Shown here: in pieces, positions 31,001-61,328 of the stretch
How the letters are laid out: every line of letters starts with the position of its first letter
Position numbering within the stretch: the first letter of the stretch is position 1
DNA from: Marsupella aquatica
Taxonomy: Eukaryota > Plantae > Marchantiophyta
Reading direction: 5' to 3'
Length of the DNA: 64,000 nucleotides
NCBI GenBank assembly: GCA_973895155.1
Contig: OZ316891.1
Location: forward strand, 21,752,513 to 21,816,512
Made by a program: the position numbers and the translations under genes
The notes under the pieces: model-generated
Database searches by the model: none
The model's input: only the letters and a program-made list of their open reading frames with translations
What the model was told of the DNA's origin: nothing

Positions 31001-31190
31001 CTACATTTTGCCAGAATCCAAACTACTCTATGCTGTCCCTGGGAGAAAATTAAGTCAAACATTTCAAAATATCTGGTTTCTTTGAACATTCAACATGTTC
31101 TTTAAAGAATATCCTTGACACATCTTGCCGACAGTATTCTTATGATCAAATTTGTTTTTGTTGTGAAGCAGAGCGAGAACGCACATAGTC

Positions 31191-34100
31191 ATGGCATCCG
31201 AAGGAGAAACTAGCAAGAAGAAGCGGAAGTCTTTGGAAAAAACTGATGGAAGCCCAAAAAAAAGGAAAGCGAAAGTTAGAAAGGGTGTCACAGGAGTGAA
31301 TTCCATCACTAATTTTTGTGGGAGGAAGATGACATTGAAATCCACCATCACCGATACTGTTGTCCGAGTTGAACAGAAAGATATGAAGCACTGGGGAGTG
31401 GTGCTTGATAAGAATGTTCTTCGGATGTGCGTCGCTTCTGAAGAGGGGACTTTGGTATTGTCAGACTCTCGAATTCTCAGTTGTGTTTATGAGAAAAATG
31501 TCAACCTGAAAGACTGTCAAGAGGCTTTGGTCCTTCTGGTCGAGGAGGATACCGTCGATGAATCACAAAACAATAGGATTTGCTATTGTTTCTCCATAGA
31601 GGTATTTGGGATGTTTGACCAAACATACATTGAGGCAAATTGTAGATTATCTCCGGAGGCATTCTCAACCATTTTGGATCCCACATTCCCAAAGGTTTCT
31701 ACACTCATAAATGGCCCAAGCATTGAGAGGTACATGTTATCCATCTTGGCATGGGCAAAATGCACCTTCCCGGAAACATTTCGTGTTGGAAAGAAGGAGG
31801 AACTTGAGAAGCAATCCAAGTTTGAAACAGGAGAACTTCCAAAAGTGATCACTGGAGAAAACATTGGAGATCTTTGCAAGAGTTTCAATGGTGTTTATAA
31901 AAAAGCAAACATCTTTGATAGTAGAGTTTTCAATGTTGAAAATTTGAAATGCCACATTGCACCCAATGTTGTAAAATGTAGAGGACATGACCCTGATTAC
32001 TCAAGGGACCTTGCCAACTCGATGAAATTTCAGTCGTTGGTAAATTTTGAGAAGCGGGTTTGTTTCCTCATCCCAGTGCTTTGGGATGAGAGCAGGAGCA
32101 CTGAAGTTGGCTATTGTGGGACTCCATTGTCACACCCACCGATCCTTGATCAAATTGACAATTATCATTTTTGGATAATTGGAGGCCAGCACACAGTAAT
32201 AGCTTACCGATTACTTTTGAATGATGAATCAGTGGATGCTGCTATTCATCAAAAATGCCTTACAATTGATGCCGTGATGTTTTGGGCACCATATGATTTG
32301 GCTGGGAACCTGGTAATGATGGGATTATCAAAGACATTGAATCATGTCCATCACACAGCGATGGATGAATCCCAATTTTTCTTGATTGCAAGACAGGTCA
32401 GAGATATTTGGAAAAGTTATGGATGTCCTCCTTCAGAGACAAACAGCACCAAAGATTCAAAATGGAAGGTAAGAGTCATATATTTCATAAGTTTATTTTT
32501 ATTCTTGTTTAACTTCTGCTAGTGCATCTGAATGCAATAGAATGTGAAAAGTATAACAGTGTGAACCATGGTTCGTATCCACCTAATGATTTTAGTTGTG
32601 TGTGAACAACACTTCTCAAAAGCAGCAATGATCGTCATCCCTTGGGCTAAAGAGGAGAATGGAAAATTTAATTTGGGTGAACTTGGACCTTTCATCTTAA
32701 ATATGATAGATTCCACCTTCAACTTGTGGATGAAAGTTTACGAGATGTCAAGAGAAGGAAAATTGGTTGCTTTCAATGGGTTCTTACAGAGAGATGTTAT
32801 TAAGAAAGATTCTGCTCAAGGAGCTTGGGAGGTGGCACGAAGAACATTTCGGGATTTTCTTGGTGTTGAAGATGCAGTGTTGATGAAGATTGCAAGGTAT
32901 CTTCTTACCAATAAGAAGATCTCACTAATGAAGCAACGAAGTAGCGGAATTGCAAAGAAGATAGATGCAGTTCCTATCGAAGAAGATTTCATTGCTCTTG
33001 ATGAGTATTGCGTTCAAAAGAAGCAGGATAAGGAGTTTGAGATACTGCTTTTGAAATATCTTGCAAAAGATAATATGCCTAAGGGGAAACTACGAGCGTT
33101 GCCCATGGAGCAGAGAATCGAGAAGGTGAATGCAATGCGAGCTTTTTTTAAGCTTACTCCAGATAAAGTTGAAAAACTTTGAACTACGCTTGGACCTGCA
33201 GTAATCCCAAAATCATTAACGAAGAACACTGGAAATGACGAGTTGCAAAATCTTTTGCCTGGAGTTTTTAAGAGTTTGATATGGTCAATCAGGGCTTCAG
33301 TGGATGGAAAAGGTAATCCGGTGGTTGTGAAACTTGACCCAAAACTTAGGTTTTGTTCAAATGAGGGATTTGGAACTCCTGCATTTTTTTGTCCAATCAT
33401 CTTGGAATTGAAAGAAATGGCAACATTCATATTCTTGGATGCTACCATGATACCTGGAATAAGTCCCATGACACGGAAGACATATGAAGCATTCTTTGAT
33501 GCAGCTTCTATGATTGGGTCCAAACCATCTCATGTCGTGGTAGTGATATCATCTGCGATCGACTCTTTCTTTGTGATGAGTGCCATTTCAGCACACCCAC
33601 ATTATGTTGCATTCACAACACAATACTGGACACAATCTCGACCGTCATCTTCTACATCGACAATTTATGATGTCAATTGTCTTTTTGTAACTTATGCATT
33701 CTTCAAAGTGTCATTCACTGAAGAATGTGAGGCAGATGAGATTTCTGGAAAAATTTTGTTAAGCTTTAAGAAAGCAGGATGTTTGAAGAATTATGAAGAG
33801 ACAACAGAAGATGTTGCAGAGCAGACTCAGTTTGGGGAGAAAAGCAAGAGTTTCTATGATAACTTGACTTCTCAACTTGTCTCATTTGACAAGTTTTCTG
33901 TCTGTTTTGGAGATGGCCGACATCTGATCCACTCCCTTTTGGTATGAGTTTTTAAACCCCAAACCTTACAGTTGAAAGTTCATTTAATTATTCAACTATA
34001 TTGAAATCCCAAGTATTAAAACTCAGTCTCATGGTTTTGCAGAACTTGGGAGCTCGGGTACGTTCATATTGTGACGAGTCTAATCACGAAGGACTTACGC

Positions 34101-36660
34101 AGTTCTTTTCTTCCACAAACAAGTTTAATCATGATCAGCCTGAAGAAGCATCATGTGAACTTCGAAGTATTTTAGAGAAAAATATTGCCAGATTGATGAA
34201 GTATAATTTGGCCAAGAAGAATATGAGAGAGGACATTATTGAGCTTTGCAAAGATACCTTACACCTTGGTGAAAGTAGTATTGCTCGTGTGATCAAGGAA
34301 TATGGATTGGGCAACATTCCTGAATCAGATGACAAAGTCTACGAAATGCCAACCAATGTTCCTACTGATCCACTTGGAGGTTAATATGACTACCATTTGT
34401 TATAAACTACCATATTCAATAGCTAATGATGAATTAAGTAGCCAAACTTGTCATATGCCAGATATGAATCATGAATTATAAATCGATGTTCTCAAGAGAA
34501 TGATGTACATGATTTGATATAGAATGATTGATTGATGAAAATATTAGAATGAACCATGGTTGGAACAAGTTGGATGTGTGAAGTTAGATAAATTTATCAA
34601 GACAATATAGAACCTATTATTTGGTATAGTCCAAACATTTCAAATGGATAATAATTCCAACTAGAGTTGAAGCAAATACTAATACGAACTGAACAACCCA
34701 ATCATAGTTTTAACTTGTCAAATGAATCGCTTAAATTCTATAAATAGATTAACTTACTCTGGAATTTTGTGAAAAATTAGATTAGTACTTAACATAATAT
34801 AGAAAACACTTGTCTAATACATCATGTAGTCATTGAAATTAGGCAAAGCAAACTAATAGCGATATTTAATAAATAAAAATAATTAGAAGTTTATTGGTTC
34901 ACCATATTTATCTATTGTTTGTTGTTTTGGTTGTAGGAGATGAAACCAATTCTATTGAGGACGAGAACAAGGATGAGGACGAAGAGGATAACATTGATTC
35001 CCCGAATGCTTGGCAGCCACTAAAGTTGGATCACGTGGAATCACCAAATGATTCAATGGAAATTCTTGACTCGTTCAGGGCTTTCCAAACCGAACCAGAG
35101 CTCAATGTCGAGGAACAAGGAGTTTCAATGACCAAAGGAAGATGCCCTACCTCAAATCTAAATGCAAAGAATGTTAAAAATATCCAATCAAATTGTAGCC
35201 GTGCTGGGGTGCAAGAATCAAATCAAAGAAACAAAAATGAAGTGGCATTTGATGAAACCAAAAGTAAAAATGAGCGAAGAATGATTGTCCGCAAATTTGT
35301 GTGGGAAAATTATATTCCTGATCAGGAAACCAGTTGCCCAGATCACATTTCTACAATAGATTGGGATGAGTTCTTTCGAAGCGAAGCTCAATTTCATGGG
35401 TGGAAAGCAAGAGCATATTGGCATGAAGCTTTGACTCATCGCTCCGGTTTGGAAACCCCTGAACAAATCACTAATTTACAAGATAATGTCTATTATGCAA
35501 CAGAAGTATGTGAAATGGTTGGAGATCCTCCTATTGATGTTTTTGCCATTCAAAGTGAACCTAAAAGCACTATTAACAAATGGACTTGGATGAAGGAGTA
35601 TCAACTAATCTCCAACCCTATCACTAACTCTATAGATACACCCGTGTCTAATCTTAATGATGCTACACTAGATACATGTGCAGTTTATCAAAGTGATTAT
35701 GAACAAGCAATCATCCAAGATTTGGGTGTGAAGAGAGATGATTCTTTCATTCCAAACGAGGAAACAATAAGAGACAATGCTTTGGTCGTGAATCCAATGG
35801 TGGAGCAGATGGATCCTTTACTGGTTGAAACTAACATTTTGGGCACGTCTCCCATATCGACAGAGCAAGTAAATGTTGATGGTGATCCAGTGGAGAAGAA
35901 AATGGATCCTTCAATGGTTGAAACTAACATTTTGGACGTGCCTCCCACATCGACAGAGTCAAGAAATGCTAACAACAACCTAGCAAGGGAGCAGATGGAT
36001 CCTCTAGTGGTTGAGACTAACATTTTGGATGTGCGTCCCACATCAACAGAGCCAATAAATGCTAACAATAACCTAGCAAGGGAGCAGATGGATCCTCTAG
36101 TGGTTGAGGCTAATATTTTGGATGAGCCTTTCACATTGACAAAGCCAAGAAATGTTGACAGCAACCTAGCAAGGGAGCAAATGGATCCTCTAGAGACAAG
36201 AAATGTTGAAATCAATGCACAAGTGGATCCTGTTATGATTTTGGCCGAAAAACCAAAGGTGTCTCACACATCGATGGACCCTAAAACAAATGAGAGTGAT
36301 TTGTTGGTAGATAGTGAAGAACATCCTTGGATCCAACAAGCCACTAACCTTGAAGATCAAGACATACCGGAGGTGGGAAAAATTGCGCCTTGGGAAGAGG
36401 AAGCATCTGCTGCAGCCTACGCTGATGGATTGAATGAATTACCACCTCCTTTTTTGGGGATCCCATTAGTTTCAACTTCTCATGGAGATTGTTCACAAAC
36501 GACTCCGGCAACAAGAATGGAGCTTCCTAAGACTGGTTCCAAGGTCATTCCAGGTCGTGCCACTCGACGGGATTCAAAGAGACCCTCGGTGATAGAAAAA
36601 GTTACTATGCTGCCAAAGGTGAAGAAGACACCTCAGCAGATTTTGCGCAACAAGAAGTAA
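31191..36660 (+). pseudogene. Element A cargo gene: NLS, ParB-like domain, degenerate amino-MTase-like fold, acidic/repeat tail (4 exons)
   Basis: KKKRK/KKRK NLS; YHFWIIGGQHTVIAY; FIFLDATM...EKSKSFYDNLTSQLV...CFGDGRHLIHSLL|NLGA; donors at 32469, 33942 and ~34380; premature TGA at 33180 (Arg in the paralog); homologous to 49229-44450. Confidence 0.75.
35803..36192 (+). repeat. Coding tandem repeat, 93 bp (31 aa) x ~4
   Basis: EQMDPLVVETNILDVPPTSTESRNANNNLAR-like units. Confidence 0.9.
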
Positions 36661-36778
36661 TGATTTTATTTTGACTATACTTAAAATGTATAATGTTTTT
36701 CATAGTGCTATAAATTGTTTGATTGTTTAGGTGCAATCTGAGCCCAAACCAGCAAATTGGTCATAATGGTTGTGAATA

Positions 36779-37589
36779 GTGTATAGTATCAAGGAAACTT
36801 ACCCATTATGGTTGCAAAAGTCATTGCAACAAGATAAGAGGGAACACTTCCAAATATGGATCAATACTCAGTATATTCGTGATCATGGAGATAGAAATCA
36901 TTCAAGGAGATTCCATGTGTTTAATAATCAGGGTACATTTTGGACTACTTATCACACTTATTTGTAGAATGAACCATGGTGCATAGTTAATTTATGACAT
37001 ATTTTTGGGTACTATTCTAAATCTCATCTGTGTGTGTTGTGTACAGGTGAGAGTTGAAAAATTATTCAGGAAATTACTTGTCATAAGTATCAACAAGTTC
37101 CTCATTTACACAACTGGGGTCTCTCGTCATTTGAAGAAGACATCATCTTTCCGAGTTTATAACAAAATGATCTTTCCGAGACCATATGTACAAGAATTTC
37201 TTGAATTTTGCACTTCAACTTTTGATGTGGTTCTTTGGGCACTCACTGACACATGCAAACTGGCTGATCAAATGGATCCAATACTCACAGATAAAGCTTT
37301 GAGTTTTTCTGGTCTTAAGTATCTTACATCAACTTTGATGGACATGAAACAGATCAATGATATTTATCCACAATATCAAAGACAAAATGTTATATTTTTA
37401 GAGTGTTATCCATCATTTGATAGTGTAAATCCAATGTATTCAAGGCTGTATCCCAAGCCGTATTATGGTAATTGTAAAGACAATTTTCTTAGAGGCACAC
37501 TTATTCCATATTTACATAATCTAGAAGATTCTGGTCAGACAGCGCATAAGTTTATTAAATATCACTATCCTACTTGGTCTGAAGTATGA
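36779..37589 (+). CDS. FCP1/SCP (NIF)-like HAD domain exon (37047-37589) plus a C-terminal remnant of a second one (36779-36920)
   Basis: KLLVISINKFL...FPRPYVQEFLEFC...FDVVLW...DNFLRGTLIPYL; catalytic DxD replaced by SIN. Confidence 0.75.
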
Positions 37590-38759
37590 GACAGTATCAA
37601 TAGAAATGTAGTAAAAGAAACCACAGCTTGTGTGGTGTAGTGTTTAGAATATATTCAAATGTATTCTTTTTGGATAATAAAAGTTACATTATTTACGTGA
37701 AAAATTGAAATGATTGATTACTGCATTATATATTCATGAATGATTACTTGTAATGTTCATTTTACTTCATAATGTCGAATGCCAAAATGTCTACTTGTAG
37801 AGCAAAAATTCTATTCTTGAACTCAGTTTTGGCAGCACCCGATAATACTTGTAAATTCAGTCTTTATATTCATAGTGTCTGATGCGAAAATAGATACACA
37901 TAGTATAAAACTTGTCATTTTGTAGAGATCTACTAGTGTTAAATGCAAAAAATTTGGCTTAAGTTTCTTTTAGGCCCTTGGAACTTATTGAGTATTATAG
38001 CCAATATTAATTCTCAAATTCAGTAGATACCAATTTAAATGAAAACTTTTTGTTTACTCACTATCAGTGTATTGCATTGAATATGCATTTCACCAACAAA
38101 TTAGAATACGAACCATGGTTTATTGTATGTTTTGACACTTAATTTGGTTTACTTCTTTTTTTGTTTGGGGAGGGGGGGGGAATAAAACCCGCAAAAACCC
38201 ATGGGAAGGGGGGCCCAACAGGGCAACAAAGACAGAGGCAGCAAAATGCAAACCTATGAGATGGAGAGAGAGCCCCAATGAGCAAGGACAAAAAAAGATG
38301 CGGTCCATGCAAGCAAGGAAAGACACAATCCAAAAGAAAAGTGTCCAAGCGTGTGACCCACCTAAGATGTTCCTGACTAACTAATTCTTTTACTCTAAGT
38401 AATCTAGTATGTTTTCTACCAAGACCCGAGGCTTTGCAGAGGCCATGCAAAGAGTCTAACATTTATGAAAGGAGTAGATTCAAGTTAAACACTCAATTTG
38501 GTTTACTTTGTTTAAATTGTTCCTATCACATGTGACTGAACTTGGATCCATCAGGTTTTTGTTGATGTCCTGGAGCATACCATACTTTCAAACTAGAGGA
38601 AAAGAGTTAATACAATGGGGGAAAATGGAAGTCTTGGACACTTCCCCCTTATATATGGCCCGTGGTGGTTTAAATTTATTTATTTATTTATTTAAATGAA
38701 TTAAATAAATCAGTAATATCTTTGTAAAACTTCATTTAAGCATTTATGGAATTGAAAAT

Positions 38760-38783
38760 TCCACTTTTATCTAAATAAGGGTT
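38760..38783 (-). repeat. Element A right TIR
   Basis: Reverse complement AACCCTTATTTAGATAAAAGTGGA, 22/24 identical to the left TIR. Confidence 0.9.
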
Positions 38784-40592: not shown

Positions 40593-40864
40593 TTATAACC
40601 CCAATTTAAGGAAAACCAAACTTTGGAAATTCCGAAAATAACTAAATATTATTATTTTAATAAAAAAGGGGCGACATGACGCGTGGCTGCGCGTGAAACC
40701 CTGAAAATGACTGCAACGTCACATTTTAACCAATCCAACTTGACGGGACCAAGAGACATGCTCACGCGAATAATAGTAATAGAGAAATAAATCTTTGAGA
40801 TCCTTTATATATGATAATCAGTATATAAGGAGTTTACAAATGGTTTCTAGAACGACAATACAAA

Positions 40865-41600
40865 TTAATTTGATCTCATGCCGACTATTATTTTGGAAGC
40901 GTCCAAAATTGGGCGTCTGTTAAATTGCTCTACTAGATATCTATCTCCATGCCTCAAAATCACAGGGTCTTCCCATAGAGTATGATTATAATCATAATCT
41001 CTAAAAATATATTTAACTGACCAATTAGGATAATCTCTTCCATTGGCAATGACAAGCGGCTCACAAGAGTTTGCTAGCTTGCTAAGATACGGAATCAGCA
41101 AGTTAATCAGGAAACTGTCGTCGACCGACCCAAAATATTTGGGCGGAAATAATGATCCAACAACAGGATCTAAACAAGCATGAAATGCATCGGATTCGAT
41201 AAGCATTATATTTTGCTACAGATATGCCTTCGTATAAATTCCAACCTTCTCAAAACACTTCAAAAATATCCGCTTATTTGATGTCACCCCATCGCATAAG
41301 TAACAATGAGACTGATCCCAAATATACTTAAATGAGGCCATTTCCATCGCAGTAAAAATAGATGCTAAAATTTGATCTAAAAGGTTCTTCCCAAGAGAGG
41401 ACCAGATCCCTACATCGAAATTCTCAAAACAAAATCTCAAGAATTCATGAAGATGAGGCCTTGGAAAAACGTATATATTCCCATCTGAATTCCAGTTGAG
41501 ACCGCCATCAGTCGGGAATGCGGTGCAGTGTAATAGAGTATATGCTCCATGTCTAAAACTATGAGCCCAGGCATTTTCTTTGCTGCAATGAATCTCCTGT
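40865..41600 (-). pseudogene. FCP1-like HAD domain #3 (element B)
   Basis: LIVLDMEHIL...FPRPHLHEFLRFCFENFDVGIWSS...DDSFLINLLIPYL; frameshift, and TAG at 41216. Confidence 0.8.
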
Positions 41601-41682
41601 AGAGAAACACAAGAAGATGCATGAGCCCGTATGGATGTAGTCACGCGAATGGTCGCGTCACATATTACAGAGACAACATCCT

Positions 41683-42390
41683 CTACACTCTGGCCATTGA
41701 TAAGTGACGTCTGTTGAAGTGCTTGATAAGAACTTGATTCGCATGTCTCTGCACGTACAGATTCTCCCATATATCCTCGTTCAGATCCCAATCTCGATGT
41801 AGATTTCTAATCGACCAGATGGGATAATCAAACTTGTTAGCAAACGCAAGACAAAGCCCTGAATTTGATAGCTTTTGTAAATATGGAATGAGGTCATCCC
41901 TCAAAAAGACATCATCCAACGATCATTGAAACGACTTAGCGAACAATAATCCGCATACAGCTGTCTGGCATGTATGGGAAGGATAGGCATCAATTTGGAT
42001 TATATTCTCTGGTTGATAATCTTGAAACATATCATGTAGTCTCTCGATAGATTTGAAGACAACAGTCTTATAATTTTTCTTCACATAACCAAGATTCCAA
42101 CAATGATCCTACGTGAACACATATATCAACTGCGACAGGTCGGTGCTCGACAACACTTCTGAAAGTATCTAATAAACCAGTTTATCATTGAGAATAGACC
42201 AGACCATCACATCAAAATGATCATAACAGAATTTTATAAGATCATGAAGATGCGGCTTCGGAACGACACATAGAGATCTGATACGAATTCCGGGTGTTGA
42301 CTTGAGCTGAGGAGTATATTTTGAAACAGAGCACAGGAAGTTTGCCAGTCCTAAAACCAGAAGTTGACGCGACCTGCTCCACTTAGACAC
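41683..42390 (-). pseudogene. FCP1-like HAD domain #2 (element B)
   Basis: QLLVLGLANFL...PKPHLHDLIKFCYDHFDVMVWS...DDVFLRDDLIPYL; in-frame stops. Confidence 0.8.
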
Positions 42391-42521
42391 CTATAAATGA
42401 ACAATTCGATTCTCATATTATGCAATTGCAAACAACCACGCGATCGGGCGCGTCACTCCCAAAATATAAAGTTCAATTTCAATCAATTTATAAATAATAA
42501 TTGATAATAAACAATAAATGT

Positions 42522-43292
42522 TTACTTATTGGACTTATCCCGGGCTTCTATAGCATGGTCTTTTTCGGCAGATAAGTATTTCATAAATTTGTCAAACTTT
42601 TCTAAATGGTCTTTATTCCCCTGATTACGAATGATCACATTTCTCCTCCAAAGATTTGTCTTATCAATATAATCTTTCTCAAGATTTTCTTGAGAGAACG
42701 TTGGAATCCCATATCCACTAAGGAGCTCGCGGAATGTCAACTTGTCAATTGACATGTCGCATAGATATGTATATAGTTTCTTTCTAAAAAATAGGTCATC
42801 ATCGAGCCCAGAATATGCATCGGGATACAGCGATGAATAGAAGTCATTAAGGCTCGTCTTATATGCAGCATCATCGATAAGAATGACATTCTCGATGTTG
42901 TAATCTTTAATATTGGCGGCAATGTTGGAGAGACATTTGACAAATAAGGGGATGTCATTATTATTCTTCCCAATAAGTCGAGTTGATTCTTGTCCCCATA
43001 TAAATTTAATACGTTTCAAAACTTCGGGTCGAAGTATCAGCCTTACACAAGATAGAATATTTCGTTTGAACATGCACGACCAGATCGCAATGTCGTATAG
43101 ATCTACCACCTTCTCAAGAAATTCCATTAAATCAGGCCTTGGATAGATAACCTTGTGCATCTGTCTCACACCCCTTGACCGAATGGGCATCCCAGGGCTG
43201 ATCTTCTCTGACCAGATAAGTACCCGATTCAGATCAAAAATTACAAGTCTCTTTTGAACCGGTGACTTCTTTGCCGATGGATTAGGCGCCAT
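42522..43292 (-). CDS. FCP1/SCP (NIF)-like HAD domain #1 (element B)
   Basis: KRLVIFDLNRVL...YPRPDLMEFL...YDIAIWS...NVILIDDAAYKT; the exon probably starts at 43427, spliced in frame to ULP1. Confidence 0.85.
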   Translation of the reverse strand: MAPNPSAKKSPVQKRLVIFDLNRVLIWSEKISPGMPIRSRGVRQMHKVIYPRPDLMEFLEKVVDLYDIAIWSCMFKRNILSCVRLILRPEVLKRIKFIWGQESTRLIGKNNNDIPLFVKCLSNIAANIKDYNIENVILIDDAAYKTSLNDFYSSLYPDAYSGLDDDLFFRKKLYTYLCDMSIDKLTFRELLSGYGIPTFSQENLEKDYIDKTNLWRRNVIIRNQGNKDHLEKFDKFMKYLSAEKDHAIEARDKSNK

Positions 43293-43513
43293 CCGTACCT
43301 GTGATTTTTGTGCCGCAGGGTTTGGAGAACGTACTAGAACGGTCTATTTGTTTCCCGCCTCCGGACGATCACCGGACTTCCGGACTGGTGCCTTCGATAC
43401 TCGATCAGGGGGTTTCGGGATAGGCTTCTGTAAAACATTAAGAAATGAAAATAAGTTTATAACGTGAACGGTCGCATGACTACAAAGGAAGACACTAAAA
43501 TGAAGTGTATTAC

Positions 43514-44303
43514 CTGTACAAGACGGTTGTTCAGTGCTGGAATTCCGCCGGAAATGTCAATCATAGCAGCACGGATCCCGGTAACTAGGTTACTTGCGGA
43601 TGTTGGCTTGCGGAAGTCCATGTCAAATAACGACAAGACTATCTCCCTACGAAATTTCTCAATTTGATCCAAGGAAAAATTAATTCTGTTTCCTTGACAC
43701 AAGCACTTGGCGTATCTCAAGATAAACACACCACAACTGTGGCCGTCACTCTGGTGAGGAATATCATTCCGATATATCCGTTCCCAACCTGAGAGATCCA
43801 AGTTGACACCAGTTCTCCAGCCAATTTTGTCGGCGTAGTACTTCCCAACAATATCTAGCACCCCAGGATTTTGTTGATTATGAACTAGAGAATCTAGGTA
43901 CCCGAGCCGTTTCTCCTTCGGATACACAACTACCAATGACCAATGTTCTTTCACAGCATTGTGTACTGAAAAGACCAGTTTGTCGTATTCACTGATTTTT
44001 AGCGGAAACTCCTTTGTCCAAGCTGCTCTCTCCTCATCGAAAATGGTAGGATCCATGGAGAGAAGCTCAAAATGGTGTGTTTGGAAGAATTTGACAAGGT
44101 CTGACTTTCCAACTCTATCGAGAATCAGTTTGAGAAAACTCAAATAAGCGTTAATTATATCATCGGTGAGCAACTCGCGCGGTCTTAGACACATCATATG
44201 TTTCCTCTTGATCGAGTGTTGTAAGAACTTGGTCAATAGCTCTTCCATATCCTTAGAAGGATCAAGGCATTGATCTATTCGACTAGCCAAATTTTCAAAA
44301 AAC
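43514..44303 (-). CDS. ULP1-like SUMO protease (peptidase C48) domain exon
   Basis: LLTDDIINAYL, EHWSLVV, YLDSL, QSDGHSCGVF: intact His-Asp-Gln-Cys catalytic residues. Confidence 0.92.
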
Positions 44304-44449
44304 TGTAAAAAACAGAGATTTCAGTACGCCTTCAAATAACGTACTGAGGTTGTAGCCTAAGGGTTCTACCTCAAAAAACAGAAACAATAACAAATCAATA
44401 ATAAAATAATGACGTCTATAATAGAAACTTTAAGCTTATAGCTTGCGAA

Positions 44450-47400
44450 TGACCTTTGGATTGGGTGGATCCGGCCTTTTTGCAGCTGATCTCTTGGGTG
44501 CCTCAATCGCAACAACATCCTTCAGCCCTCCTCGAGACCGCAGTGATCGCTCCACCGGACCAGTTTGCGAAGGTTGGAGCGATGAGGCGGGAAGACCTTC
44601 AAATGGTTGTGGCATTTGATTCAAATATTCCACAATCTGGGAATCCGATTCCAAAATATCCGGTGCCACAATTTCTGCGCGAGTGACCTGTGCAATATAT
44701 CAGGGTCAAGACCACGAACCCGGTCGTGTCAAGTCAGCTGTTAGTATCTTAACGACTTGAGCCGAGTCTGGTGCCAAAGACGTTCCCAGGTCTTGCACTC
44801 GATTCTCAAAAAAGCGGACATTATTGATGATTGTCTCCATTCTGGATGTGCAGTGGTAGTCTTCTCCTCGGTAATCAAAAGACCCTTCCAATATTGCAAA
44901 GCAAGGACTGCCTGGACTCGGAGCTGCTCCGGTGAATATTTATTCCAATCATCCAATGAGACCGTACTTAAGGGTGGATCGTTAAATTCAAACTCCGGGC
45001 GAAGAAAATAGTCTAATATTTTCTTCTTAACTGCAACTGAGGGTGAAGAAGGCTCCTTCAAATTTAGCTTTATTTTTGGTAGATGTTGTGCCTCAGGAAT
45101 AAGCGAAAGATCCTTAGCCCTCTCGGCCTCCTTCCTCGCTGCCTCCAGTCTTGCGGCTTCTTCTCTCTCCAGTCTTGCGGAATTGACCTTTTCCGCCTCC
45201 AACTTCTCCGCCTCCACCCTCTTCGGTCTTGCGGTCTCGTCCGCCATCCTCTCGGCCAGCAGCCTCTCAGCCGCCACACTCTCCGCCTTGGCCCTATTTG
45301 CCTCTGTCACTAAAAGGACTCTCGTAGCCTCCGCTTTCTCAGCCTGGGCTTTCTTCGCCTCCGCTTTCTCAGCCTCGGCTTTCTCAGCCTCGGCTTTCTT
45401 TGCCTGGGCTTTCTCAGCCTGGGCTTTCTCAGCCTGGGCTTTCTCAGCCTGGGCTTTCTCAGCCTCGGCATTCTCAGCCTCGGCTTTCTCCTTCTTCTTT
45501 GCGGCAGTTGCTTTTCTAGCTACCGCCTTTTTCTTCTTAGCCTCCTTCTTTTGAAGCTCCTCTTGTCGGGCCGCCTCTTGTCGGGCCGCCTCTTGTCGGG
45601 ATGCCTCCTCTTGTCGGGCCGCCTCCTGCCGGGCCTCCTCCTGTCGGGCCGCCTCCTCCTGCCGGGCCGCCTCTTTTTTTTGAAGCTCCTCTTGCCGGGC
45701 CGCCTCCTGCCGGGCCTCCTCCAGCCGGGCCTCCTCCTCCTACCGGGCCGCCTCCTCTCGGTCCACCTCATGTCGAGGCTCATGTGTGGCCTCTTCATCA
45801 GAGTCTCAGCGTCCTCAGAACCCTCCATCTCCTCGTCCTCTTCATCAGCATCCTCAGCGTCCTTCATCTCCTCTCCGTCACTCTCTTCATCTCCTCTATT
45901 ATCGGAATCTCCGACGTCGTTCTGCGTATCGGTCATCCACTCTAGATCTTGGTCATTGACATCCCCATCCGCGTCACCTTCCGTGTCACCTTCCCCCTCA
46001 CCATCCGCATCACCATTGCTCCCTGCATCCTCAACATTGAAGCCGCAGTCGACTTGATCTTAATAAAATCAGATCATTTGATAAGAATGACTCACGCGCA
46101 TATTCGCGTGAAAAGAAATGTTAAGAATGTCCACGCGCATGTTCGCATGATGCAATAAAAAGTAAGAGGTTTCAAAAGTAACCTATCTTGGATTGGCCCA
46201 CTAGGGTACTCCGTTGGTCGAATGTACAATCGATCGGAATCTTCAGAGAGTGCATACTCTTGCAATAATTGATTACAAATATTATCAGGGATATGTTGTT
46301 CGTGGAGGACATCCAAAACATCAGCCCTGAGAGCAGTTACGGATGGACGGTACTTCATTAATTTATCTATACATTTTTCTATACTAGCCCGTACTGGGTC
46401 AATCAATGACAGCGTTGTATCAATTGTCACCGTGGTGTGTTGCAAGAAACAAGACAACTCCCTATGCATTGCCACAAGGCAGTAATATTTTACATTGGAT
46501 CCAGCATCCTGTAAAAAAAGCCAAAATTAGTTCACAATATTAATTGAGAATATAATAATCTAAATAATCTTAAAATCGAAACCCCAAAATATAAATCTCA
46601 AAACTTACCATCAAGCACTGGATCAAGTTCGTTCCCTCACCGAAGCATAGAGCCCATTCCCCACATTGGACGAATTGACTAACAATACTTTCAAAGAATG
46701 GAAGTATCTTTTCTGGGGAAGGTGTCGTGAACTCGCCGCTCTCTTCAAGATTGGCTATCTTCTCAATCCGATATTTGGAGACCAATTGGAACTCGAGGGC
46801 TTGTGGATCGCCCATTGTGTTGAAGGCCAAGCTGTGAAAAGCGTAGGTTACAATAAGCTTCTTCTCCTTCGGCCGCTTCTAAATATAATGGCTATCGACA
46901 GCAACGTAGTGTGTGTACTTCCCTAATTCCCATTTGATTAAGTAAGACTCAATGGGAGAGGCTACAATAATAACCACATGGTGTGGTTTTGCCCCTATCT
47001 CGCTAGTAGCACGAAATAACCCCTCATAGAATGAGCAATTTGGCGCACGCAAATCTCCCATTGATGAGGGATCAAAATAAATCAAGCTCGCAAGGTTCTT
47101 GTCTTCACGTATGATACAATCCGCAAACCCAGCATTTTGTATATCCTACAGGGATCGCAATTTCAGCCTCTCACCAACCGGCCGCACTAGTTGGTTTCCT
47201 TGACTATCAACTGATTTATGTATTCCTTCCACCAACCTGTAGAATATCGGGTCGATCTCTTTCAACAAATTATCATTATTAATATTTACATTTAAGCACT
47301 TCTTCAGATAACCACTCAACGCATCTCTCAACTGCTTCAACACCATCTTGTCGAGCTTAAAGCGATCAATCATTCCTTTGACCCGCAATTTCCGCGCTGA

Positions 47401-49229
47401 ATCTGTCAGACTTTTCAGCTCCGTCCGGGTGGATGTATTCCCGTTGAGTTTACTCAATAATAAAATCTCAAACTCAACTTTCGTCTTCTTCTTTATACAT
47501 AATTGCTCCAAACTCATGCTAGTCGTTGACAACATTGGAGCCTCAGAGGACTTCCTCGCCTTCCCAGATTTCACTTTGATGCTTTGGTTTTTGAGTATAG
47601 ACAGTCTTCCGCTCAACATATATTCTGTTGCCTTTCGAAGAACCGAGTTTGAGCACCCTTGACAAGAATGGAACGTCTTCTTCAGAAAGATGATAAGCAC
47701 ATGGATTATCCGCAATTTTGACGGCGTCCCTCTGTAAAATTCCGTTGTAAATTACAAGCTCTCCTGTCCTTGATAGTTTGTAGACCTCCATCCACTTCTT
47801 GAATGTTTTGTCCTCCATGTAAAGAGAAACAGAGCCAATTCTCCAAATTTCATCATTTCGTTCATCCCCATTTGAGCCCATGGGCAAACAAAACTCTAGC
47901 TCTCATAAATACCTGAAAAACAATGGAAACATGACAATTCTAAGATTGACGCGACCGTTCGCATGAGAAAAATTCTAAGCTTGACGCGACCGTTCGCGTG
48001 ACAAAAGTTTAAATGATAATGTGATCGAAGAGGATTATTTATATACCTTCCAATTTGGATGATGATAATGTGATCCAGGCCGCCCAAATGAGTTCCAGAT
48101 ATTACGACACTGTTGTACAATGGTGAGAAACTGTCCTTCCATTGATGTTTGATGACAGTGGTTCAGAGCTTTCGATAATCCCATCAAATGAACATTATTG
48201 TCGTTGTTGAGCGTTGCCCAAAACATTACAGCTTCTACAGTACCGCAAGCGTCTCGTACAACTTGGCTGACTTTGTCGTCCTCTTTCAATCAGCAATTTG
48301 TACGCCATTATTGTGTGCTGGCCTCCGAGTATCCAAAAATGACTGGTCATAATGTCCTCCTCCTTTGGCGCCGAATCGTAGGGCGCCCCATTGTAGTCAA
48401 GATCTCTGTCGGCCTCCGACTGAACCCACTTCACAGGGACTAAAAAGCAGCATCGCTTTTCAAACTTTATAGTCGAATGAGAGAGGAGTGAATTCTTTAG
48501 CCTACCTGTGTAATCATGATTCCACTCTCGGCACTTGATATGGTCCGGTGCAAGATGACAACGTGATGTCTCAACAAAAAATGACTTGCTGTTAAATATA
48601 TTCACAGCACTATATTCTTTGAGGAAAGAATCGAATAGAGCCCCGACATTCGCTGAGGTAATTACTTTCGGAAGATTCTTCGCCGAGTATACTTTAACCT
48701 TGGTCACTGGCGGGGCCTTTCCCAAGCGAAATCCCTGGTTGAAAGGAACTCTCTAGAACTCAAGTACGTCAATAATGTATTGACAAATCAAATCTCCCGT
48801 TGATCCCTCTGGATCGGAAGGATATCCCACACTAGTAACCTTTTCCAAGGCGTGCCTTGCATCTAGAAGATCATCGATTTTGGACTGATTGAAGGTTACG
48901 TATTGCGTTTGATCCAAACAAATGCTTATTTTGTCCTCTTGCTGGTCGTCGCTAACTAGCAGAACCAATCCCTCTGTACACTCTTTAACTTTCATGTTCT
49001 TCTCAAAGAAACACCCAAGAATTTGTGATCTCTCCAAAACTGTAGCTTTATCATTTTTTGCCACCACAAGACGGACAACCTCATTGCGAACAACTATTCC
49101 AAAATCGGATATCTCAGTCGATTCAAAGAGATGGATACTCTTTGTCTCCGTTGTTCTCTCTCTGATTGACTTTCCTCGATATGCTTTAGATGAATCTCTT
49201 TTCCGCTTTGAAGTTCCGGTAGGATCCAT
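44450..49229 (-). pseudogene. Element B cargo gene: ParB-like, amino-MTase-like, acidic and EK/AR coiled-coil regions (continues into ULP1)
   Basis: HFWILGGQHTIMAY; LIYFDPSS...PSPEKILPFFESIVSQFVQCGEWALCFGEGTNLIQCLM|DAG; in-frame TAGs at 48753, 47146 and 46879 plus frameshifts; collinear with 31191-35500. Confidence 0.78.
45300..45760 (-). repeat. Coding low-complexity repeats (15-bp AEKAE/Q and 18-bp EEAARQ units)
   Basis: GCTTTCTCAGCCTGG and GCCTCTTGTCGGGCC arrays; minus strand reads EEAARQ and AEKAQA. Confidence 0.85.
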
Positions 49230-49304
49230 TCTGAAATAGACAAATATTGAAAGTTAAACGTTTATTATAAAATACTAACACGCGCATGGTCGCGTCGTGC
49301 CGAA

Positions 49305-49780
49305 TTACATTTTAGGAACGTTTATCTTGACCCAATCTTCTCGCTCATCTTCATCTAACCAAAACCAAAGGTTCCTAAATGTGTCAAGTTTAGATCCTTC
49401 AAATCCACCCAGAATGTCCAGTGGCGGGAGAGTTCTGATGGATTCTGTAAATCTGAATGCTACACTCCGTGAAGGCAAATGCCTTTGAAGCGATTCATAT
49501 CCTGGTCTATCAGTGAAGTCGTAAGCTACCAAGGTGACCGTCGCCCAAGTACTACTATAAGTAACTATGTGGCACCACTCCTTACTAACTGTTCGAATGG
49601 CGATCAAGTCCATGACCCGATTTTTAATCGCATTATCCGAAGACAGTGGAAAAACTCTTTGACTAATGGCCAAATATATTTCTCGACAATATCGTCCGGA
49701 AGACCGGGTATCAGGTCTTCAGCTTGACTCCATATCATGTTTTGGTTCATAACCTTTGCACGTGCAATGCGCTCCATCAT
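49305..49780 (-). pseudogene. F-box-like unit 3
   Basis: LIPGLPDDIVEKYIWP...LIAIRTVSKEWCHIV, with a frameshift. Confidence 0.6.
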
Positions 49781-49889
49781 CATTTGATGATGAGATTTCG
49801 ATTCATGTCAAAGGACTGCAACATAATATGGAAAATATTAAGAACAAGAACCTATCCATTAAGAACTGGGACCACCTAGATTCTGAGAA

Positions 49890-50425
49890 AATCTACCAAA
49901 CCTTTTGATTAGAACATCTCGTTCTTCCTCATCTAAATAGTTATATTTGTTCGTAAACAATAAGATTTTGTCAGAAGTAGTAGTCCCAAGAACAAATATT
50001 TCTGGAAGCATAGAAATATCTTGTCAAATAACTCGACAGATTGAGTCAAACTCCAACTCGTCAGTTTCAGGTATGTAGTAAAGTGCTTCATTTGCGTCAT
50101 CGACAATCCGGTTTGCTTGTTTGAGGATAGCCCATAACCTTGTATTTGTAACTAAAAAGTTCCACTTCTTGCTACAAGCTCCAAGCTGAATAAGGTCTCG
50201 GACCCTATCGATAACCAAATCGTTATCGGGGTGTCGATATCGACGCAATCCTTCAATTGAAATAAAGTGTTTGTAGAGTATTGGCCAAATGTTTGAAATG
50301 ACCAAAACATCTGGTATTCCTCCAATGAGACTAGAGGAGGTTTCATCCAGCGTATCCCATATTGTTTTCTGTTTCCTTTCATGAGATGAAAGGAAATCTC
50401 GAGCCTCATTCAAAAGTTGGCTCAT
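49890..50425 (-). pseudogene. F-box-like unit 2
   Basis: LIGGIPDVLVISNIWP...LGACSKKWNFLV; stop at 50024 with homology continuing beyond it. Confidence 0.6.
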
Positions 50426-50490
50426 CCTGCTTTTATCATATCACAAAACATTGTTAGAAGACATATGATGCGCTTGGTCACATAAGTTAA

Positions 50491-51042
50491 CTAGAATTCC
50501 TTAAAAGCGTAGATGTCACCCTCAAGGTATCCAACTTTGTGGCATCTGACTATAAATTTCCATTTTTCAAGAGGGTGAAGAGCATCGTAAGTCTTCGTGA
50601 AGAGTTCCCTAAGATCTCTGGACATTGACCCCATGAATTTAATTCTTGGGTATTTCTGGAAGAAACTTTGAACTGTCGATGAGAGAGACTCATTTCCGAT
50701 CGGTTTAGTAGGATTTCCTGGGAAAGCCAAATCTAATAAACTCAACTTGATTACACCCAGAAGATAGGTATTCCCAACAAGGTGGCGCCATCTGCGACAC
50801 ACCGAAGATAGTCCTACAAACTCATCCAATTCCTTTATTGAGAAATTTCTTGCATTAGCCAAGGAATTAAAAGACTCCTTGATCCGAGGCCATATCAATT
50901 CTGCGACAATGAAATTTGGAAGTCTAGGTAGTAGTATTTCAACAAATACAGAATATACCGCCAGTAGACCATCTTGGCTTCTGTCCAAAACGTTAAATAT
51001 TGGGCATAGATATCTGAAGCTCTCCAGACCAGGTTTGCCCAT
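50491..51042 (-). CDS. F-box-like unit 1
   Basis: LLPRLPNFIVAELIWPRI...LSSVCRRWRHLV. Confidence 0.65.
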   Translation of the reverse strand: MGKPGLESFRYLCPIFNVLDRSQDGLLAVYSVFVEILLPRLPNFIVAELIWPRIKESFNSLANARNFSIKELDEFVGLSSVCRRWRHLVGNTYLLGVIKLSLLDLAFPGNPTKPIGNESLSSTVQSFFQKYPRIKFMGSMSRDLRELFTKTYDALHPLEKWKFIVRCHKVGYLEGDIYAFKEF

Positions 51043-51183
51043 GACTCTTTTCAGCCAAATGATATATCCCAGAGATTATTTTCACGCGACTGGTCGCGTC
51101 TACAAATCAGAATGTATAAACAATTCTTTGAGAGACTGTGATTTTGTCGGGTCACAACGTGACAAATCATAAATGTTGCTTCG

Positions 51184-51910
51184 TCCTCTAACAGAACCAG
51201 TCAATGAGAGAGCTACCTCAGACGCGATTGGTCGCGTCAACTGATCCTAAATGGAAGAGTACCTCCTCTAACAAAACCAGTCAATGAGAGATCTACCTCA
51301 GACGCGACTGGTCGCGTTAACTGATCCTAAATGAAACCTTACCTCCTCTAACAAAACCAGTCAATGAGAGATCTACCTCAAACGTGACTAGTCGCGTCAA
51401 CTGGTCCTAAAAGGAACCTTACCTTCTCTAACAAAACCAGTCAATGAGAGAGCTACCTTAGATGCGACTGGTCGCATCAACTGAACCTAAACAACTATAT
51501 TCACTGAACCTTCCTTGTGGAGATTTGGATATGGTACGCGCTCAGTAAATCTATCTAGTTTCCTTCTCACATGCGACTGGTCGCGTCAACTGATCCTAAA
51601 AGGAACCTTACCTCCTCTAACAGAACCAGTCAATGAGAGAGCTACCTCAGACGCGACTGGTCACGTCAACTGAACCTAAACAACTATATCCACTTAACCT
51701 TCCTAGTGGAGATTTGGATATGGTATGCGCTCAGTAAATCTATCCTGTTTCCTTCTCACACGCGATTGGTCGCGTCAACTGGTCCTAAAAGGAACCTTAC
51801 CTCCTCTAACAGAACCAGTCAATGAGAGAGCTACCTCAGACGCGACTGGTCACGTCAACTGATCCTAAATGGAACCTGACAATCTTTTCACGCGACTGGT
51901 CGCGTCAACA
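51184..51910. repeat. ~80-bp tandem array carrying the element-B palindrome ACGCGACTGGTCGCGT
   Basis: Unit CCTCTAACAAAACCAGTCAATGAGAGAGCTACCTCAGACGCGACTGGTCGCGTCAACTGATCCTAAA; palindromes at about 51222, 51302, 51382, 51462, 51571, 51651, 51760, 51840, 51890. Confidence 0.9.
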
Positions 51911-51943: not shown

Positions 51944-54095
51944 GTGATACAACTGTGATTACTGACCCGTATGGACAAGGACATCCGAGTAAGCATGATT
52001 TCATTCATTGGTATTCATTCATTGGTATTCATTCATTTATATTCATTCATGAACTTTACAATAATTCAGATGTTTGAGCTCTGTCATTGTGAAACTATTA
52101 TATATCAAAAGTTTAGAGAATGATTCAGCAAAGATGATTCAATTTAGCAATCTACTGGTTGTATTCGTCAATTAAAGGATTCAGGGTAATGAGATTCACA
52201 TAACATGAGAGTTTATATGATTAAATTCACAGCGTGCAAGTTTGTGATGACTTACTTAAGACGATTCAGGTTGTATTTTAATTAGTGAGTTTGTATGATT
52301 CAGACATATTTGAGTTTATAGACAAATCGCATTATGAAAACTCAGCTTAACAATCAAGAGAAATTTTAGCAAACAACAATCAAGAGAAATTTTAGCAAAC
52401 AACAATCAACACCAACAGAAAATGTAGAAATTGCACCTGAATTCTGAAAAATTGATGTAATCGTCTGAGAGATTGACGTCCAAGCACTTGAAGACCTTGT
52501 TGCGGCATTCCAGAAAGTAAATATAAGATTGAAGATATTGATATGCTAAGCAACAACAACACAGCTTCTATACTTCTATACATAGAGCTTCGCTGCCACC
52601 AATTGAATAACATGTGCTTAATGCTAAGGAACTCATTATGTTGAGTTAAAAGACTCTTTCAAAAGTACAATCAAAGTTGTCGATAGACAAACTGAGCATG
52701 AATAAAAGCGCACTAAACCTGAAGATTGAAAGAGGTGAAACAAACCTGAATGATGAATGGAAGGAGCTGAAACAAGCTACCAAAAAGTAGTTCGAGCTAC
52801 TGAAACACGTTGATCGAGCTGATATGAGCTTAAAATTGGCTGACACGAGCTGATACGAGCACTCCCAAAAAACTAGTTGCATCAAACCCAATGGGCTCCT
52901 AAGAATCCCTTCGAGCAAACTAGAAGTGAATACGAGCTGTAAATGCGAGCTGCAACGCGCCAACGAGCTCCTGGTTGAAACGATCGACAACTACTAAGAG
53001 CTGCAACACGCCGACAAGCACCTGACCACAATGAACGAGCTGCAACGACAAAAATGAAATCCAGGGCAGGAGCGAGAGCGAGAGCAACGAGAGCGAGAGC
53101 AACGAGAGCGAGAGCAACGAGAGCGAGAGCAACGAGAGCGAGAGCAATGAGAGCGAGAGCGACGAGAGCAATGAGAGCGAGAGCAACGAGAGCGACGAGA
53201 GCGAGAGCAAGAGCAAGAGCGAGAGCGAGAGCAAGAGCAAGAGCAAGAGCGAGAGCAAGAGCGAGAGCGAGAGCGAGAGCGAGAGCGAGAGCGAGAGCGA
53301 GAGCGAGAGCAAGAGCGAGAGTGAGAGCGAGAGCAACGAGAGTGACAAGAGCGAGAGCGAGAGCGACGAGAGCGACAAGAGTGAGAACGAGAGGGAGTGC
53401 AACGAGAGCGAGAGTGATGAGAGCGAGAATGAGAGCGAGAGCGACGAGAGCAAGAGCGAGAGCGACGAGAGTAGGCACGCAAAAGTCTAGGGAGCGAGAA
53501 ACAACAACAATGAACAGTGAACTCGAGACCGTGGGCGCCGACACTAAGGAAGGACTAATTAGGGTATTGTTTTAGCATAACCCTAATAACAGCCTAGCAA
53601 CAGGAAGGTTCCAGATGATCTCCGTACACTCCACCATCGACTCAACAAACTATGCAATCGTGAAAAAAAGATTACCGGATTCCTTTTGATTTGCCGTACT
53701 AAAGGAGATTTCTATTTGATCGCCAATTTGAAATTTAAACCGGTAATTATGCAACTGTGAAAGATTGTTAGTGGGAACCCCCGGATCCGTATCTTCACTA
53801 TATCTGCCAATTCAAATCCAAAATGTGAACGAACAACAACTTTCTCACGATCGTTCCATCACGTAGTGGAGGCAAACTTCAAAATCATTCCATTTTGGTA
53901 GTGGAGACCATCGGATCCGGATCCATACTCCACTCTCTATCTTGCCAATTCAAACCCAAACTCTAAACAACGTAAAACGATTCTCACGGTCGGGGAGAAC
54001 CAATATTCAAAATCAATCCTGTACAATGATTTTCACGACTGGAGACTCAAGCAATTTTCAAAATCAAAATTGAGTCCAGATGAACACATCCTTCA
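51944..54095 (-). mobile_element. Truncated LTR-retrotransposon 5' region (LTR ~53545-54095, PBS-like site ~53530-53540)
   Basis: TAAGGA...TCCTTCA termini; minus-strand CGGCGCCCACGG is PBS-like; no coding remains recognised. Confidence 0.4.
53070..53472. repeat. (GAGAGC/GCGAGA)n microsatellite
   Basis: ~400 bp of hexamer-based repeat, which produces the poly-RA/LA/LS ORFs. Confidence 0.95.
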
Positions 54096-60158: not shown

Positions 60159-61328
60159 GGTTCCTCTCGGATATAATGTGAAAAGTTTCTTAGAGCTACT
60201 TTTGAGACGATTGATGATTTGCGATGTGGTAGGTAAAGATTGAGAAAGACAAAGAACAAGGGGGAGTCCTCGGAAGCATTGGTAACCTCAATTCACCCCT
60301 GACAAGAACACGACAAGGCAAGGTTCCAAATCCAGGCAAAGAAAATGTACCTTCATTTAGGGTAATTTCAACAAAAGTACATGAAGATGCACGACAACGG
60401 TTGTTGACTAGCAAGAACATGGTATGATCACACATTCCATCCATTCAAGATGTTTTTTGTTTAAAGTAGTAGCAATTCATTTGTGTATAATGAAGTGGAG
60501 CTAGAACATAAAACCCCAATTTAAGGAATACTGAAGTATTAGATTAATTCCAATTTTATCTAAATATTATAAGTTAATGAATGATCAACCTCTTTAACAT
60601 TTGGTGGAATAGTCAAAAACTTCAAATGTTTTGTTGCAAGATCTTTATAACAATGCATCACTAAATGATATCAAGTACCTCTTGATCCATGCACAAATCC
60701 TTAATTAAACTGTCATTCATTGTTTCAATTGTCTATTTAATTACTATAGGGTTGAATACAAAAAAGATTGACCACCCTTTACAACAATTAATAGGATTGT
60801 TGTATATTACAATGTCTACTGGACATTCATTTGAATGTCAATAATATCATGCCTTAATATCACCAAACTAACGCCCCACTGTCTAACTAATATTATATCT
60901 TAAATAAACTAACCAACTAACTAACTTGTCTATTTAATTACTATAGGGTTGAATACAAAAAAAGATTGAAACGCACCAGGGTGCGTGACCTACATTAATC
61001 ATGGTATCACCCTTTAATTAGTTAGTTTCTATTGCTTTGACTCAATCAGGCATGGAACCATATAAAATCAGAAATCATTGAAAGTTGAGTTCACTTGAAG
61101 GTGTAACTATAATTATTACTTATTAATAGGATTGTTGTATATTACAATGTCTACTGGAAATTCATTTGAATGTCAATAATATCATGCCTTAATATCACCA
61201 AACTAAGGCCCCACTAACTAATATTATATCTTAAATAAACTAACCAACTAACTAACTTAGACGATAAGACTTGTCTAAACTTGAGTTCTCTGGCTACTAC
61301 TATTCTGAGTTGCCTTTTAAACTGTATG

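Follow-up and report, generated by a model that had tools for sequence, protein, structure and literature searches.

A palindrome of about 20 bp that recurs in the non-coding parts of a Marsupella aquatica DNA transposon is, with a probability that we put at roughly 0.6, a family-specific parS-like candidate site for a dimer of the element's own ParB-like protein. The window, that is the whole stretch of 64,000 nucleotides that was analysed, holds this element (B) together with elements A and C. Within B the sequence ACGCG-N6-CGCGT (motif B) is present in 11 exact copies and, with at most one mismatch, in 17, against 0.06 expected and a count reached in 0/100 shuffles; once CpG decay is allowed for, the total is 20 copies. 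Exact dyads with these arms were found only at spacer 6 when spacer lengths of 0-12 were tried. The 20 copies carry 13 arm mismatches in total, each of them a C>T or G>A change at CpG; three of the copies were chosen by a decay-aware pattern and the six single-mismatch copies without it. The complete motif spans about 20 bp, TS-ACGCG-MMYRKK-CGCGT-SA, and its N6 spacer is constrained, contrary to the first-pass annotation, which had the spacer tolerating changes.

Element B belongs to a DNA-transposon family with multiple copies, and the copy in the window has decayed. Its left end (40597..40618, + strand) is terminal-repeat-like by its likeness to the ends of C and A: it shares 15 identical nucleotides with element C's end (at 60512; 19/22 overall) and 16/22 positions with A's terminal repeat. 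The 15-mer is found at the B and C ends only, and contig depth climbs over 40.3-41.3 kb, across this end. A gene remnant at 39.9-40.6 kb was dropped as a part of B once the end was found at 40597. Between 37.6 and 61.4 kb no second end of B was found, nor was a DUF7869 transposase found inside B within the window. Element C was rejected as the source of a transposase for B: it possesses a separate end, oriented like that of B, and its CpG observed/expected ratio is 0.32 versus 0.88. The ratio of 0.88 in B also compares with 0.31-0.43 in its neighbours, which speaks for the self-recognition reading but may simply be youth. The CpG-rich B-type DNA gives way to a retroelement-like stretch near 53.6 kb, and a (GAGCGA)n tract at 53070..53465 is the probable 5' leader of B.

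The genes of B lie on the minus strand. Three NIF/HAD phosphatase-like exons separated by short intron-like gaps (40868..43427; tblastn, translations and Pfam NIF, E 3e-10, 1e-9 and 0.08) do not keep the DxD motif, and an Ulp1 SUMO-protease-like exon (43516..44307; Peptidase_C48, E 9e-18) has the His/Asp/Cys residues present. Linker exons, acidic and rich in Ala/Glu/Lys repeats (44453..46059), separate these from ParB/Srx-like, helical and methyltransferase-like exons (46185..49229) that are collinear with those of A at 28-54% identity. Stops and frameshifts break this copy of the ParB-like gene, and its indels at 47686 and 48286 are missing from many contigs. Three F-box-like reading frames (49310..51066) match one another in tblastn and Pfam F-box at E 0.004-0.05, below the cut-off.

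Motif B occupies the gaps between these exons. The copy at 40679..40694, exact, lies 82 bp inside the left end. Exact copies also lie in the NIF2-NIF3 gap (41643..41658), in the NIF1-NIF2 gap (42438..42453) and just 5' of the ParB-like start codon (49280..49295), and the copy in the intron that precedes the NIF exon (43462..43477) carries two deaminations. Intron 3 has two copies at 39-bp spacing (46094..46148), where position 46147 is G, giving a perfect motif, in most contigs of 4/4 runs; intron 1 has two in a 35-bp tandem (47949..47999), and contigs read G at position 47963. A 3-mismatch copy at 50468 lies between the first two F-box-like frames, and an upstream cluster (51084..51905), at which the summed contig depth is about tenfold, comprises one single copy and nine in an 80/189-bp array. 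Every position listed in the first-pass annotation thus holds a copy, with 46132 shifted to 46133 and two mismatches at 43462, and its "about nine more" in the upstream array are exactly nine, at 51222-51890. Footprinting of intron 3 was limited by the uniformity of the family, X1 and X3 having 4-7 variant places; a single arm base was changed, in one shallow diverged contig. Loose ends suggest one-copy versions of this intron.

The restriction to introns and spacers noted at first reading is borne out, since 8/11 inter-exon gaps of B hold the motif and 0/11 dispersed copies are in coding DNA, which makes up 86% of 40597-51150 (P ~5e-9, computed on nine independent sites and with exon borders taken from homology, good to a few bases). 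That short intron-like gaps hold most dispersed copies could also be expected of small RNA hairpins aiding splicing or processing of a long transcript. This is very improbable: 14/33 spacer pairs are complementary, though the spacer is constrained by sequence, the arm sequence itself is kept beyond mere pairing, and half of the copies are situated 5' of the genes. Scarcely credible, in turn, is a neutral origin in which a small repeat multiplied by local duplication and left the palindromes as its relics. The array and two tandem pairs are indeed plain duplications, and the 35-, 39- and 80-bp units agree with the earlier proposal that tandem amplification seeds new sites. The nine dispersed sites, however, lack common flanks (mean flank identity among dispersed copies 0.34, with nothing common beyond 2 bp, tandem units excepted), and the same pattern, built on different palindromic words, is seen in three other families; the neutral reading is largely refuted already.

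One of these families is that of element A, a complete transposon of 26,295 bp (12489..38783) delimited by inverted ends and a target duplication. Its terminal inverted repeats of 24 bp match at 22/24 positions, a score also reached by 1/30 random window pairs, and GAGT on both sides forms a 4-bp target site duplication, which we take to be a trait of Sola-type transposons. Element A has a DUF7869 transposase-like gene (12971..16783, - strand; PF25273, E 3e-35) and, on the opposite strand, a ParB/Srx - helical - methyltransferase-like - NIF gene (31191..37589, +). Element C (60512..64000, - strand), whose end resembles that of B, is a separate and older DUF7869 element. Pfam thus finds DUF7869, presumably equivalent to Sola1, in A and C; no Mutator-like (MULE) transposase match occurred among 42 frames scanned, and a phage tblastn with a transposase piece, possibly out of frame, gave no match. 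Motif A is present in A in 20 copies, none coding, which read RCGAACCATGGTTCGY with 7/40 outer CpGs left; the 16-mer first written down for it has 0 exact occurrences. The intron of the transposase gene holds four copies, and motif A is also present in intron 3 (34552) and in the pre-NIF intron (36972).

The palindromes might alternatively be binding sites of each family's DUF7869 transposase, for transpososome assembly or regulation. Binding of internal repeats by transposases is established, the transposase is likewise family-specific and could covary with the motif in the same way as the ParB-like protein, and both the four A copies in the transposase intron and the B copy that lies 82 bp inside the left end would fit. 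No transposase was seen for L001 or L002, two further loci described below, any more than for B. Most copies are nevertheless kilobases from the ends and grouped around the ParB-like gene, A's first lying 2 kb inside the left terminus. No repeated dyad shows in the intron of the C transposase, and the ends of B and C are near-identical, yet the motif fills B alone. We consider this explanation unlikely.

The two motifs are mutually exclusive under strict patterns (13 versus 0 and 0 versus 15), and in the orthologous introns 1, 3 and pre-NIF each element carries its own motif, A or B; neither motif is present in intron 2 of either element. Two metagenome loci (L001 and L002), unrelated and with more distant ParB-like proteins, both have repeated palindromes in the same intron 1 (2/2), and these differ from motifs A and B. 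Family specificity, as first proposed, is supported, and these loci add two further palindromes. The intron 1 dyads of each locus were equalled by 1/300 shuffles, the motifs having been spotted by eye before testing, and their exons are without such dyads. L001 has two copies, possibly one duplication, and L002 is not significant at arm length 4 (56/300 shuffles). The repeated-dyad test misses intron 1 of A, with its one copy, and that of B (252/300 at arm 5 and 18/300 at arm 4). This distribution also bears on the proposal that the palindromes are host transcription factor sites driving element expression. Copies are located in introns and upstream of genes, and the half-site of motif B resembles what we take to be the CGCG box of CAMTA-type factors, a known plant element type. 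Against this, one orthologous intron holds four words that are unrelated or only pairwise related, the dyad spacing is strictly 6 bp, lone half-sites are rare (three outside the copies) and 50 kb elsewhere contains a single 2-mismatch site. Host factors are accordingly a quite improbable source of the pattern.

Co-divergence of motif and protein, proposed in the first-pass annotation, is seen for one pair and is not evident for the other in a comparison that covers four families. The sister proteins of L001 and L002 are identical at 54/103 positions (52%) and their motifs are related (p 0.006 and 0.001). The A and B proteins are 50% identical, as close as the former pair, but the columns of their motifs are no more alike than chance would give (p 0.23 and 0.41); motif and protein trees therefore agree in 1/2 pairs. 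For the same reason the "architecturally matched" palindromes of A and B are weakly matched, though they share a CG at equal distance from the axis.

According to the structural models, the protein of A and that of B each combine a domain of the ParB/Srx fold with a degenerate domain resembling N6-adenine methyltransferases. For the ParB-like domain (pLDDT 85.5), the best nine matches in VIA are all ParB/Srx-type chains, led by PadC (Z 8.1, rmsd 2.8, 96 aligned), and Foldseek ranks Noc and ParB best (E 0.008-0.01; Noc 0.008). Sequence searches of Pfam and PDB gave no match of the protein to a ParB or methylase family. A GGQH box is conserved in the ParB-like proteins and lacks the arginine that we assume to be usual in ParB's CTP motif. 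In exon 2, modelled at pLDDT 57, Foldseek places CcrM first (E 0.0018), followed by M1.HpyAVI and RsrI, and VIA aligns CcrM over 270-443 (Z 6.5) with generic SAM methyltransferases scoring higher. These structure matches are confined to the methyltransferase part. Residues 1-230 are predicted to be mostly helical and are covered by no match; the best atlas score of this part, 0.81, is a lead only, and neither fold search of exon 2 matched a helix-turn-helix, the model being weak. The catalytic motif of beta-class N6A/N4C methyltransferases is (D/N/S)PP(Y/F/W). The methyltransferase-like part is without the DPPY motif: the corresponding residues are DATM in A and DPSS in B, both read from decayed copies, and YASI in the Calypogeia protein. 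Relatives come from a liverwort and a fern; a full-length relative over 770 aa was not found, which is weak evidence, and viral contigs gave six pattern matches, none of them to a relative. The DUF3723 cargo of fungal Starships scores 0.95 against the ParB-like domain, and the same module may recur there.

If the palindrome is the site of the ParB-like protein, the helical region would read the half-sites, and the protein, once bound, would place its Ulp1-like and NIF-like domains on the element that encodes it and keep that element transcribed or unmethylated. Sites would multiply through tandem duplication and drift along with the protein, with the result that each family would act on itself alone. 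A fuller version, less likely than not at present, is that giant transposons of land plants took over the ParB-parS principle of bacteria as a private addressing code, in which loading on the own palindrome and spreading would deliver SUMO protease and CTD-phosphatase-like activities and unsilence only the own family. The window and two relatives provide four candidate site-protein pairs, with which the self-recognition idea can be tested directly by reciprocal binding; if it is true, the pairs would serve as mutually orthogonal DNA address tags native to plants.

In the accessible text of a red-algal preprint, self-binding and self-modification of transposons are described as proven for VANDAL only (bioRxiv 10.1101/2025.02.11.637652). 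The closest counterpart is Sola1-1_Ec32 of Ectocarpus, a giant DNA transposon of 21.5 kb whose ParB-like and N4C/N6A-methyltransferase gene runs opposite to the transposase strand; for this element and algal ParB-like accessory genes self-binding is proposed, the sections available naming neither a binding motif nor a cognate site (PMC12477816). Element A shares the giant size and the ParB/methyltransferase-like gene opposite the transposase strand. As far as that text goes, the present elements differ in their degenerate methyltransferase motif, their added Ulp1, NIF and F-box-like cargo, their liverwort and fern relatives and their family-specific palindromes. PAG3 of red-algal Plavaka is a ParB-like protein of a giant DNA transposon, with adjoining inverted-repeat tandem arrays as proposed sites (bioRxiv 10.1101/2025.02.11.637652). 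Unlike the proteins of A and B it is described there as fused to a 2OG oxygenase, with the methylase a separate gene and another transposase, and the available part of the preprint gives no intron-by-intron or family-specific motif comparison such as that made here. Bacterial ParB and Noc recognise related 16-bp palindromes, their specificity being fixed by four residues according to the portion consulted (PMC7383237). The resemblance of the present system to ParB-parS and Noc-NBS lies in the ParB/Srx fold and in related proteins with related palindromes; it differs in having no ParA, no helix-turn-helix match, an altered CTP motif and a eukaryotic, intron-containing gene. In VANDAL/VANC of Arabidopsis, the published excerpts describe short family-specific motifs of introns and spacers that are tandem-amplified and differ between sister families; VANC motifs are 8-9 bp and non-palindromic and belong to Mutator-like elements, for which both binding and demethylation have been proven (PMC5735166; PMC10398659). 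The likeness to VANDAL/VANC drawn at first reading is an analogy only: the present elements are of the DUF7869 type rather than Mutator-like, with a ParB/methyltransferase-like protein whose binding and anti-silencing are hypothetical, and what the two systems have in common is family-specific non-coding motifs in tandem repeats.

Element B carries a repeated palindrome, ACGCG-N6-CGCGT, which occurs 11 times exactly in the window and 17 times at up to one mismatch against 0.06 expected, a count reached by none of 100 shuffles. Allowing for CpG decay yields 20 copies between 40679 and 51905, of which 11 are dispersed and nine lie in an 80/189-bp array, and the first-pass annotation had correctly described both the palindrome and about nine further copies in the array. 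Exact dyads have a 6-bp spacer only (spacers of 0-12 were tried), each of the 13 arm mismatches is a C>T or G>A change, and two decayed sites visible in read data, 47963 and 46147, are perfect motifs in most contigs. The full motif spans about 20 bp, TS-ACGCG-MMYRKK-CGCGT-SA, and this consensus shows that the spacer is constrained, not free as first proposed. Flanks of dispersed copies, tandem pairs excepted, have nothing in common beyond 2 bp (mean identity 0.34). Within the spacers, complementary bases face each other in only 14 of 33 pairs, and a role of these inverted repeats as RNA hairpins is very improbable. None of the 11 dispersed copies touches coding DNA (P ~5e-9, for a coding share of 9,111/10,554 bases with exons set by homology) and 8/11 gaps between B exons hold a copy, a gene remnant outside B being excluded from this count, which agrees with the earlier description of copies in most introns and spacers and none in exons. 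That the palindromes are neutral relics is hardly credible.

The element belongs to a larger setting. Element A (12489-38783) has 24-bp inverted ends, 22/24 matching, a GAGT duplication, a DUF7869 transposase-like gene (E 3e-35) and, on the opposite strand, a ParB-like gene at 31191-37589; DUF7869-type elements are here presumed to be those labelled Sola. Within A, the 19000-24000 stretch has runs of the telomere-like repeat AAACCCT and a duplicated 785-bp segment (20064/21323, 92%). The left end of B at 40597 matches A's end at 16/22 positions and the end of a third element, C (60512), at 19/22. B has a gene collinear with the ParB-like gene of A (28-54% identity), a Ulp1 protease domain (E 9e-18), three NIF-like domains and three F-box-like frames scoring below the Pfam cut-off. 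Introns in the window are GT-AG, and splice-like borders suggest that the ParB, Ulp1 and NIF exons encode one protein. Neither a transposase nor a second end of B was found within the window. The reading of the palindromes as transposase sites is unlikely.

In all four runs, contigs span every one of the 30 bins of 37.8-52.9 kb; two runs supply thousands of them. Many contigs are free of the frameshifts in the window's copy, and B is therefore a decayed member of a multi-copy family. CpG observed/expected is 0.88 in B (40597-51150) against 0.31-0.43 in its neighbours, and 0.86 in B exons against 0.41 in A's matching exon; CNG depletion is barely present too (0.99 over 40597-51150). The high CpG fits protection of an active lineage and, equally, a young family, and the window's own B copy is in decay.

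Several further features were observed. A lone ACGCA-N6-TGCGT dyad at 60971-60986, 460 bp inside C's end (one seen, 0.1 expected), could be either a motif B copy that has undergone two deaminations or a third motif local to this region. A high-copy MITE of 270-300 bp, which has short inverted ends and an apparent 8-bp duplication, is present three times, at 38843-39110, 59877-60158 and 63180-63480, and one of these copies interrupts transposase C. Tandem arrays of 147/157-bp and 175-bp units occupy 39108-39794 and 446-1603. Directly outside B's end is a broken intron-containing gene remnant (39900-40590, minus strand), of which one open piece was scanned and gave no Pfam match. A truncated stretch at 53600-57590 with 19-bp repeats is LTR-retroelement-like as judged by eye; no second terminal repeat was found within the window.

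Each family has its own palindrome. Under strict patterns, motif A occurs 13 times in A and never in B, and motif B occurs 15 times in B and never in A. In the ParB-like gene of each element, introns 1, 3 and pre-NIF contain that element's own motif, A or B, and intron 2 has no copy in either. Motif A reads RCGAACCATGGTTCGY; its outer position is A in 22/40 half-sites, and the 16-mer first written for it has no exact occurrence. The distribution and family specificity of the motifs are direct observations, as is the gain of sites in tandem, which the first reading had anticipated; here loose ends hint at versions of intron 3 with one copy. A single metagenome scan matched eight stretches, two of which, the unrelated loci L001 and L002, encode more distant ParB-like relatives. 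Both share this intron 1 and have repeated palindromes in it: three CAYGGGGCGATCGCCCCRTG-type copies with unrelated flanks in L002, and in L001, where the contig stops within the intron, two copies of TCATCG-N3-GATC-N3-CGATGA that may be one duplication. These palindromes, spotted by eye before the shuffle test, were each equalled by 1/300 shuffles with 5-bp arms, at which none of the eight other regions tested, the L001 and L002 exons included, stood out from its shuffles in this way; with 4-bp arms the figures were 11/300 for L001 and 56/300 for L002. GCGATCGC, the cyanobacterial HIP1 word, lies inside the L002 palindrome (L002:361-550), probably by coincidence.

The proposed co-divergence of motif and protein held in part. 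An own palindrome is present in 4/4 families. Over about 103 residues, protein identity is 50% for A-B, 52% for L001-L002 and 25-31% for cross pairs; motif similarity has p values of 0.006 and 0.001 for L001-L002, 0.23 and 0.41 for A-B and 0.16-0.62 for the four cross pairs. From these comparisons the motif tracks the protein in one of two sister pairs, L001-L002 and not A-B. Host factors as the proteins recognizing these family-specific sites are doubtful, and less probable than a transposase.

A profile search gave 47 relatives of the ParB-like protein at E up to 0.001; they share a W-I-I-x-G-Q-H box and most stop at the same intron position. Among ten clusters looked up, two named species appeared, the liverwort Calypogeia fissa and the fern Adiantum nelumboides, which together with the GT-AG introns make a seed-free land plant the likely source of the DNA. 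The folds of the ParB-like protein are predicted. For the AlphaFold model of the ParB-like domain (24 sequences, pLDDT 85.5), Foldseek returned Noc, ParB and sulfiredoxin at E 0.008-0.07, none under 0.001, and rows 1-9 in VIA were ParB/Srx-type chains (best Z 8.1). Atlas scores were 0.91 for a ParB_N cluster and 0.95 for DUF3723 clusters, the latter score being carried by the domain at 31830-32468. DUF3723 is a common Starship cargo gene and may be ParB/Srx-like; none of the papers listed in a literature search mentioned both DUF3723 and ParB. The C-terminal part of the weak exon-2 model (pLDDT 57) resembles beta-class N6-adenine methyltransferases (CcrM, E 0.0018), with CcrM at Z 6.5, below the generic SAM enzymes, which reached 8.9. 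Since no DPPY motif was found in this domain of A, B or the Calypogeia protein, it is probably inactive. No match was found for the helical part between the ParB-like and methyltransferase-like parts. The NIF domains lack DxD, and in the Ulp1 domain His, Asp and Cys are conserved.

The palindrome is most likely, with a probability of about 0.6, a parS-like site for a dimer of the element's own ParB-like protein. Such a dimer would bind the palindrome of its own family, could then spread, and might protect the element from silencing.

Motif B is a real feature of a kind already known but unproven. In Ectocarpus Sola1-1_Ec32 the same ParB-plus-methyltransferase gene lies opposite the transposase, and self-modification has been proposed there (PMC12477816); in red-algal Plavaka PAG3 a ParB-like domain adjoins inverted-repeat arrays (bioRxiv 10.1101/2025.02.11.637652). 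VANC recognizes non-palindromic 8-9-mers in non-coding DNA and in tandem repeats (PMC5735166; PMC10398659), ParB/Noc can switch specificity (PMC7383237), algal methylases are linked to ParB (PMC4738411) and Sola is present in Physcomitrella (PMC9033089). Family-specific palindromes in land-plant ParB-bearing transposons were not found reported in a search of mainly open-access literature. The advance lies in the comparison of orthologous introns over four families, which provides named candidate site-protein pairs.
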